Of a stretch of 64,000 nt of DNA, positions 58,698-58,979 are shown in pieces. The first letter of the stretch is position 1; each line of letters opens with the position of its first letter. Where the stretch lies: the IMG/VR virus record IMGVR_UViG_3300045988_138376, one strand, 5' to 3'. This DNA is from a virus. A program made the translations under genes and the position numbers. A model generated the notes under the pieces. That model was not told the origin of the DNA and did no database searches. It worked only from the letters and a program-made list of their open reading frames with translations.

Positions 58698-58979
58698 ATG
58701 AAGAAAGTTAGCTTAATAATTAAAGGAAATCTCATTGCTAAATCATTGATTAACAGAGAGAGAGAGAAAGAGAGAGAGAGAGAGAGAGAGTATAAAAATA
58801 ATTTAGATGACCAAACAAAAAGTGAATTATTTTGTGGTTGTTCTAAAGAATTTATAGATAGCTTCGACACGAACGATGCCATTATAATAGAAGGTGACTT
58901 AAAGATACAAACCTTCTGTTATAGTGGCATCGTTTTAGTTACAGGTGGAATCTGTTGTAATGCGGAGGAGGTGCTATGA
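58698..58979 (+). CDS. Cys-rich small protein containing an (AG)n-encoded RE repeat
   Basis: 93 aa with 'INREREKERERERE'. It starts 3 nt after the upstream stop, and its own stop overlaps the next ATG. Confidence 0.5.
   Translation: MKKVSLIIKGNLIAKSLINREREKEREREREYKNNLDDQTKSELFCGCSKEFIDSFDTNDAIIIEGDLKIQTFCYSGIVLVTGGICCNAEEVL
58755..58790 (+). repeat. dinucleotide microsatellite (AG)6-AA-(AG)11
   Basis: Read directly: a 36-nt all-purine tract inside ORF 58698-58979. Confidence 0.95.

Follow-up and report, generated by a model that had tools for sequence, protein, structure and literature searches.

The window analysed here is the whole 64,000-nt stretch of a viral genome (IMG/VR virus record IMGVR_UViG_3300045988_138376). 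It carries a tail-tip module in which a small open reading frame (ORF) located between two tip genes contains a long AG repeat. The features referred to below, all on the plus strand, are as follows:

49597–57165, plus strand: tail fibre gene, 2522 aa, with a C-terminal S74-like chaperone region (profile and structure-database matches)
57201–57208, plus strand: Bacteroides-type promoter-like motif TATTTTTG (TAnnTTTG with an upstream TTTG), a consensus match only
57247–57465, plus strand: 72-aa ORF upstream of tip gene 1, overlapping its start (ATGA) and lacking the repeat (ORF list)
57462–58694, plus strand: tip gene 1, 410 aa (ORF list), with only the N-terminal ~125 aa in common with tip 2
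58698–58979, plus strand: small conserved ORF, 93 aa, carrying the repeat (ORF list, dN/dS, AF2)
58755–58790, plus strand: AG simple-sequence repeat, (AG)6-AA-(AG)11 (sequence read, SSR scan, TRF)
58872–58934, plus strand: hairpin inside the small ORF, downstream of the repeat (inverted-repeat search, RNA fold)
58964–58971, plus strand: Shine-Dalgarno-like sequence GGAGGAGG inside the small ORF, 5 nt upstream of the tip-2 ATG
58976–60133, plus strand: tip gene 2, 385 aa, whose ATG overlaps the small-ORF stop (ORF list, AF2)

The tight packing of these genes, pointed out in the initial annotation, is confirmed by their coordinates: the stop of the 410-aa gene is followed after 3 nt by the small ORF (58694/58698), whose TGA (58977–58979) overlaps the ATG (58976–58978) of the 385-aa gene, forming an ATGA. 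The two tip genes had been regarded as paralogues, which stands for the N-terminal ~125 aa of their products (31% identity) and fails beyond, where no likeness was found. In the AF2 model of tip 2 (pLDDT 75), the N-terminal domain is followed by two Ig/FnIII-like β-sandwiches, and this predicted architecture fits an adhesin or receptor-binding role. Neither the two tips nor the small ORF gave a match in Pfam or PHROGs, and an exact look-up of the window tip 2 protein returned no record. The 2522-aa fibre protein upstream matches the long tail fibre distal subunit 6f45 (E = 7e-7) and, weakly, Peptidase_S74. In two close relatives, L039 and L042, the giant fibre protein (locus positions 1–1707) has a precomputed Pfam match to Shufflon_N (PF04917).

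We found that positions 59069–60133 of the window share 84% nucleotide identity with cr112_1 (Kehishuvirus, Crassvirales), while another 20 kb of the window show almost no match to this genome and the likeness is confined to the tip module. The possibility that the window derives from a crAss-like phage was considered and rejected, as the match to cr112_1 is limited to the tip module and a 1871-aa tape-measure protein is encoded in the window, along with a large terminase and a major-head-like protein; the presence of a tape-measure protein identifies the phage as long-tailed and not crAss-like. Its close relatives are contigs of 78–83 kb. On these comparisons, the tip cassette is shared horizontally between a long-tailed gut phage and crAss-like phages, and the distant relatives of the tip N-terminal domain detected in genome bins are all from Bacteroidales. 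Comparison of L032 (7849–10755) with the window (57247–60133) revealed the same backbone, 72-aa ORF and repeat ORF, with both tips replaced (by proteins of 442 and 362 aa); tip cassettes are thus exchanged while the small ORFs stay constant. Tip genes of the same class also occur without the small ORF (L009–L019). The 72-aa ORF (57247) was considered as a paralogue of the repeat-bearing ORF and rejected, the alignment being unconvincing. The gene directly 3' of tip 2 encodes 119 aa in the window; in the close relatives L070 (1889–2158) and L071 (1604–1873), its place is taken by a gene for an IS605-family TnpB (OrfB_IS605 / Cas12f1-like_TNB).

The repeat consists of (AG)6 at 58755–58766, AA at 58767–58768 and (AG)11 at 58769–58790, as established by reading the sequence and by the SSR scan; TRF reports a single array of period 2 and 18 copies over the same interval, the sole dinucleotide array in the 64-kb window. 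Codon 20 of the small ORF begins at 58755, and the tract occupies codons 20–31, where it encodes REREKEREREREY-type residues (20–31). The composition and codon position given in the initial annotation are thereby borne out, and so is its remark that the tract is very unexpected in this genome: when the window was simulated 200 times under a first-order Markov model, the mean of the longest dinucleotide run was 9.2 nt and no run was longer than 14 nt, and the number of (AG)11 runs expected by chance in the window is 8e-9. A simple-sequence repeat longer than chance within an ORF is one of the marks of a contingency locus, and the 36-nt AG tract is such a repeat. Relative to the uninterrupted (AG)18 of L058 and L059, the AA corresponds to one G-to-A change at 58768, which interrupts an ancestral (AG)18. 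The SSR scan of the window detected no repeat in either tip gene, and DNA folding of the AG tract itself gave no hairpin.

The family to which the small protein belongs can be summarized by the consensus MKKVDLLIKGNL..(GGG or (RE)n)..YD.S.AIIIEGDL..G.V.VTG.. and, judging by dN/dS of 0.11–0.41 on both sides of the tract (values based on small counts), it is under purifying selection. One of the five AF2 models was confident (pLDDT 80.5) and β-rich, with the repeat-encoded residues placed in a low-confidence loop or helix, which accounts for the tolerance of in-frame changes in length. Sequence and Foldseek searches of the PDB with the small ORF gave no meaningful match, and BFVD yielded uncharacterised members of the family only. 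An Rfam scan of 57000–60300 and a blastn search of INPHARED in distant mode with 57200–59100 gave no match. In every lineage, the distance between the small ORF and the next gene, whose product starts with MSxSNGxIxAP...DI..LG, is −14 to +3 nt. We observed one and the same small ORF ahead of tips whose C-terminal domains are unrelated, such as the 385-aa protein of the window versus the 362-aa protein of L027 and L032. It thus follows the position and the conserved N-terminal domain of the tip rather than one receptor-binding domain, and a chaperone specific to one tip was rejected on this ground. The same finding argues against the earlier proposal that the small protein is an assembly factor for one paralogue. 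The Cys-rich C-terminal half noted at that time is likewise not a family trait, as its cysteines are not conserved.

To compare tract lengths, related loci (cited below by their L numbers) were gathered regardless of the state of the small ORF, by means of tip homology, flanking-DNA patterns and exact look-ups of neighbouring proteins. Nineteen distinct related contigs resolve the AG tract, which in this set comprises 6–19 units; these are consensus contigs, and such assemblies can miscall repeats by one unit, poly-G above all. The unit counts are 6, 8, 9 (twice), 12 (five contigs), 13, 14 (twice), 14 followed by AA, 15 (twice), 18 (twice), 18 in the interrupted form of the window, and 19. The reading frame is kept in 14 of the 19 alleles (ON), which yield products of 85–93 aa, and is shifted in five (OFF; L003, L028, L032, L037 and L070), with products of 25–36 aa. 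The initial annotation had predicted that the loss of one unit would bring a GTA TAA stop into frame and that the gain of one unit would lead to a TAG stop. Both outcomes occur as natural alleles: the former in L003 and L070 (...V*), where the tract leaves a remainder of 1 on division by three, the latter in L037 (...SIKII*), where the remainder is 2.

Invariance of the tract among relatives had been named beforehand as the result that would speak against a switch, and the opposite is observed, since the tracts differ even where the flanks are identical. With zero mismatches in the 800-nt flanks, tracts of 16 versus 18 nt were found in L003 and L031, of 12 versus 30 nt in L039 and L041, and of 36 versus 24 nt in L058–L059 and L060. 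L003 (78,480 nt) and L031 (78,482 nt) align over 6581 nt with 0 mismatches and one gap, a single AG unit which separates the OFF allele (L003) from the ON allele (L031). Contigs that encode a 100% identical 410-aa neighbour have tracts from 6 to at least 15 units, while the 19-unit allele (L037) was reached through an identical 72-aa ORF. Length polymorphism among otherwise identical or near-identical genomes, a further mark of contingency loci, is thus present here. In-frame variants of 83, 85, 87, 89 and 91 aa, equivalent to (RE)1 to (RE)5, were also recovered from the protein database. Eight further contigs, k=99 assemblies among them, terminate within the AG tract; because a 30-nt repeat alone should not break a k=99 graph, these ends hint at mixtures within samples and suggest that the tract is heterogeneous there.

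The same site carries a different repeat in other phages. At least five other lineages were found to have homologues of the small ORF in which poly-G (G6–G12) occupies the codon position of the AG tract, with 14 ON and 7 OFF alleles among 21. In the cr112_1 type, G9 is OFF (the reference genome included) and G10 is ON; in a second crAss-like type, G9 or G11 is OFF and G10 is ON; in a third poly-G type, G6, G9 or G12 is ON and G10 is OFF; in a fourth, G7 is OFF, and G8, G9 or an interrupted tract is ON. A Muribaculaceae-binned contig has G8, which is ON. GGG makes up 12% of the Gly codons in the window, and the poly-G lineages share ~30% protein identity in the small ORF; given the rarity of this codon and the low identity between lineages, a pure G run is not expected from coding needs alone. 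The site is conserved and not the motif, with turnover between poly-G and AG at one codon position, and this is the most telling of the results. Frame toggling with a premature stop, the third mark of contingency loci, was seen with both repeats, as truncation at 20–36 aa affects 5 of the 19 AG alleles and 7 of the 21 with poly-G. In all 12 OFF alleles (AG and poly-G), the downstream frame is fully open to the stop overlapping the tip start, which points to recent, reversible switching and not to gene decay.

Several observations concern individual poly-G loci. In cr112_1 (L001, MT774388), the small ORF region lies at 5689–5921 and the CDS is annotated at 5854–7065. As this reference carries the OFF allele (G9), the small ORF is left unannotated and the start of the tip is mis-annotated, the protein being given an N-terminal extension (MELLSAQGW...) rather than the conserved MSLSNG start at 5909. 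An OFF allele in L073 (~326–514; G9, with the following A missing) has an internal ATG just 5' of the poly-G, in frame with the C-terminal half; the predicted product of 59–62 aa could reflect frame-dependent expression of that half or a coincidence. In L021 and L023 (~5140–5165), the perfect palindrome CTGCTGCTCGGCAGCAG is located directly 5' of the poly-G in the small ORF. Extra G/C homopolymers of 8–10 nt were noticed in or beside tail-module genes of L008 (5210–5219, an intergenic G10 directly after the tip gene), L010 (5893–5902), L013 (5625–5632), L026 (5384–5392) and L032 (5470–5477, a G8 encoding GGG within the big fibre gene).

The AG tract lies in a small conserved gene belonging to the tail-tip module, where we consider it to be probably a hypermutable contingency (phase-variation) site. 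The core idea of the initial annotation, a slipped-strand phase switch, is supported by the five frameshifted alleles among 19 and by the poly-G homologues with their ON and OFF alleles. Slipped-strand mispairing during phage DNA replication would add or remove AG units. Unit counts divisible by three would keep the frame and give the ON product of 83–93 aa, while other lengths would lead to a stop 1–6 codons past the tract and an OFF product of 25–36 aa, with the intact downstream frame permitting reversion. The OFF state would remove the small protein and might also lower the synthesis of the downstream tip protein. A phage population would thereby be mixed for its second, alternative tip, a form of bet-hedging on adsorption. 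What the switch controls is most likely the small protein and, via translational coupling, the downstream tip, and host range might be controlled in this way.

Some of the same observations would also be expected if the tract were an unstable but functionally neutral linker, i.e., a length-tolerant loop in which frameshifts are a transient, slightly deleterious load and not a selected OFF state, an explanation that we regard as rather unlikely. It would account for the finding of every in-frame length between (RE)1 and (RE)6 and between GG and GGGG, for the low-confidence loop or helix into which AF2 puts the repeat segment, and for the existence of interrupted, stabilised tracts, represented by the AA of the window and elsewhere by GRG, GEG or GGGAGGGGGG. 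ON alleles predominate with either repeat (14/19 for AG and 14/21 for poly-G) and for AG exceed the neutral one-third expectation (P = 3.8e-4), so that OFF alleles could be a mildly deleterious mutational load instead of a selected state. Yet, OFF alleles still make up 26–33% of the consensus sequences, which is high for a gene with dN/dS of ~0.1–0.4. Moreover, a long pure repeat has been kept at one codon position in at least six lineages of ~30% identity despite the rare GGG codon, its motif has been turned over to AG at the same site, and selection against instability would have broken the tract by synonymous changes.

If the tract is a contingency site, the gene order offers a route by which its frame could affect tip 2. 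The promoter-like motif at 57201, the sole one of Bacteroides type in the vicinity, heads the run formed by the 72-aa ORF, tip 1, the small ORF and tip 2, and no TAnnTTTG promoter motif was found within 58698–58976. A leader ORF is expected to have a stop that overlaps or abuts the next start, with no promoter motif between them, and this is the arrangement observed (ATGA in the window; −14 to +3 nt in the family). GGAGG is kept 5–10 nt before the tip ATG in all small-ORF lineages, although no more than 5 of the 65 ORFs in the window are preceded by GGAGG or AGGAG. Of these, at least three (starts 19178, 46066 and 58976) abut or overlap the upstream ORF; Shine-Dalgarno-like motifs may mark sites of coupled re-initiation in this Bacteroidales-type phage.

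The hairpin downstream of the repeat is the best inverted repeat of the 64-kb window. Its 24-nt arms (58872–58895 and 58911–58934) are 92% complementary and enclose a 15-nt loop, and the second arm is followed by TTAGTT. The two mismatches in the arms are U.G-compatible on the plus strand (mRNA) only, and the residues encoded by the two paired arms are NDAIIIEG and TFCYSGIV. The RNA fold of the window lineage has −39.6 kcal/mol (z = −7.7). In L011 a fold in the same codon register is found (z = −2.6), with compensatory changes (ATT/AGT to GCG/CGC). L021 and L023 have a different hairpin in another register (z = −2.9 to −3.8), and the folds in L001, L005 and L008 are not significant; of the six lineages, two or three at most have a strong hairpin. 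Across an alignment of 11 sequences from four lineages, the in-register pairing reaches 78% versus 38–41% when slid by 1–2 columns, and eight pairs are changed on both sides; the structure used for both counts derives from one of the aligned sequences, which biases the comparison. It is possible that the hairpin serves as an attenuator or coupling element.

Modulation of the downstream tip by the frame state through coupling, as suggested in the initial annotation, is plausible from this layout. An effect of OFF alleles on tip 2 is suggested by the stop/start overlap, the conserved GGAGG, the hairpin and the absence of a promoter motif in between. We tentatively propose that less tip 2 is made in the OFF state, owing to lost coupling, to polarity or to termination, a somewhat less than even prospect. 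Tip 2 has its own GGAGG and may be translated independently of the small ORF. Ribosomes on OFF transcripts would stop at least 80 nt before the hairpin and would never reach the hairpin and GGAGG region ahead of the tip start. A more elaborate and, in our opinion, doubtful version is that the frame state gates the alternative tip, with translating ribosomes alone melting a conserved attenuator hairpin and reaching the overlapping start. In such a case, translation-coupled attenuation would have a reversible, heritable frameshift built into it, in a small leader-like gene of gut Bacteroidales phages of different morphotypes, including Crassvirales, and host recognition would be diversified as a result.

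A strong hairpin downstream of the tract might also be expected if recoding took place at the RNA level, by transcriptional slippage or ribosomal frameshifting, so that every genotype would give a mixture of products and the DNA length would be of minor importance. Homopolymers of at least 9 bases and long dinucleotide runs can indeed provoke polymerase slippage. Yet, the hairpin lies ~80 nt past the tract, too distant for a frameshift stimulator, either off-frame reaches a stop within 1–6 codons, so that there is no conserved alternative-frame product, and the length polymorphism is seen directly in DNA; we therefore find RNA-level recoding very improbable. A sequencing or assembly artefact at a hard-to-sequence repeat is scarcely credible: one-base poly-G differences are classic Illumina/assembler errors and contigs often break at the tract, but independent samples and assemblers give AG tracts as much as 13 units apart, (AG)18 is agreed by two samples and (AG)12 by several, and the in-frame protein variants recur on many contigs. 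The tract was also considered as a target of a diversity-generating retroelement, which would introduce adenine-specific substitutions by means of a template repeat and a reverse transcriptase, and rejected as such: it varies in length only, and the window showed no second copy of the region.

A contingency locus controlling host range in a phage had been called unusual in the initial annotation; the mechanism is unusual, but not without precedent. Fletchervirus phages of Campylobacter can carry as many as four receptor-binding proteins, and poly-G tracts make two of them phase-variable (Sorensen et al. 2021 Cell Rep, as cited in PMC8713573 and PMC12633550). Similar to our locus, these phages carry a hypermutable repeat in the host-recognition module with frameshift ON/OFF control, and have several alternative receptor-binding or tip proteins, only some of which are under repeat control; poly-G is likewise found in the sister lineages of the window phage (G6–G12). 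In contrast, the Fletchervirus poly-G lies inside the receptor-binding gene, while here the repeat is in a separate small ORF overlapping the tip start and, in the window lineage, is a dinucleotide (AG)n and not G. Furthermore, the hosts here are Bacteroidales and the carriers include a long-tailed ~80-kb phage and Crassvirales. In the contingency loci of T-even and other coliphages, polymerase slippage at repeats likewise produces frameshifts that can revert and makes the population heterogeneous (Gomez, Barrick & Waters 2025 preprint, PMC12633550). Those loci are short homopolymers (at least 6 nt) in many gene classes and are reported to be under-represented in tail fibre genes (PMC12633550), whereas the tract described here is a long one that reaches 38 nt and keeps a conserved position in a tail module.

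Among bacterial contingency genes, Helicobacter pylori oipA, sabA and hopZ have CT/AG dinucleotide repeats in their 5' coding regions. They resemble the small ORF in having a dinucleotide purine/pyrimidine repeat near the 5' end, the unit number of which sets the frame, but they are bacterial adhesin genes with the repeat in the signal-peptide region, while ours is a phage gene upstream of a tip gene. In turn, the leader-ORF coupling systems and attenuators known from classical operon polarity share with our locus a short upstream ORF that overlaps the next start and a strong hairpin with a U-rich run, which here would be translated only when ON. They differ in that the input here would be a heritable frameshift instead of amino-acid supply, and in that the small protein is itself conserved. 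In the literature searched, we came across no account of such a repeat-based switch for Crassvirales or Bacteroides phages. What sets the locus apart from the phage precedents is the use of a separate small ORF, the dinucleotide, the conservation of the site across a protein family that occurs in Bacteroidales phages of different architectures, Crassvirales among them, and the associated hairpin.

Phase variation of capsules and surface proteins allows Bacteroides hosts to escape phages. If true, an on/off switch based on a repeat within the tail-tip module would be a second and much simpler counter-strategy, next to the diversity-generating retroelements that are the known counter-diversifiers of crAss-like phages (PMC12386605). 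The locus is common, horizontally, to a ~80-kb long-tailed gut phage and the abundant Crassvirales, and such a switch could help to account for lasting phage–host coexistence. There is also a practical side, in that references such as cr112_1 carry an OFF allele and mis-annotate the tip start, and assemblies break at the tract.

Elsewhere in the window, at 4016–4820, we noticed a GC-rich tandem array with an 18-nt unit, ~45 copies and higher-order periods of 108 and 126 nt. The array encodes the N-terminal ~230 aa of a 493-aa protein (ORF 4129–5607), the C-terminal half of which matches serine recombinases/DNA invertases (phrog_125, E = 2e-34).
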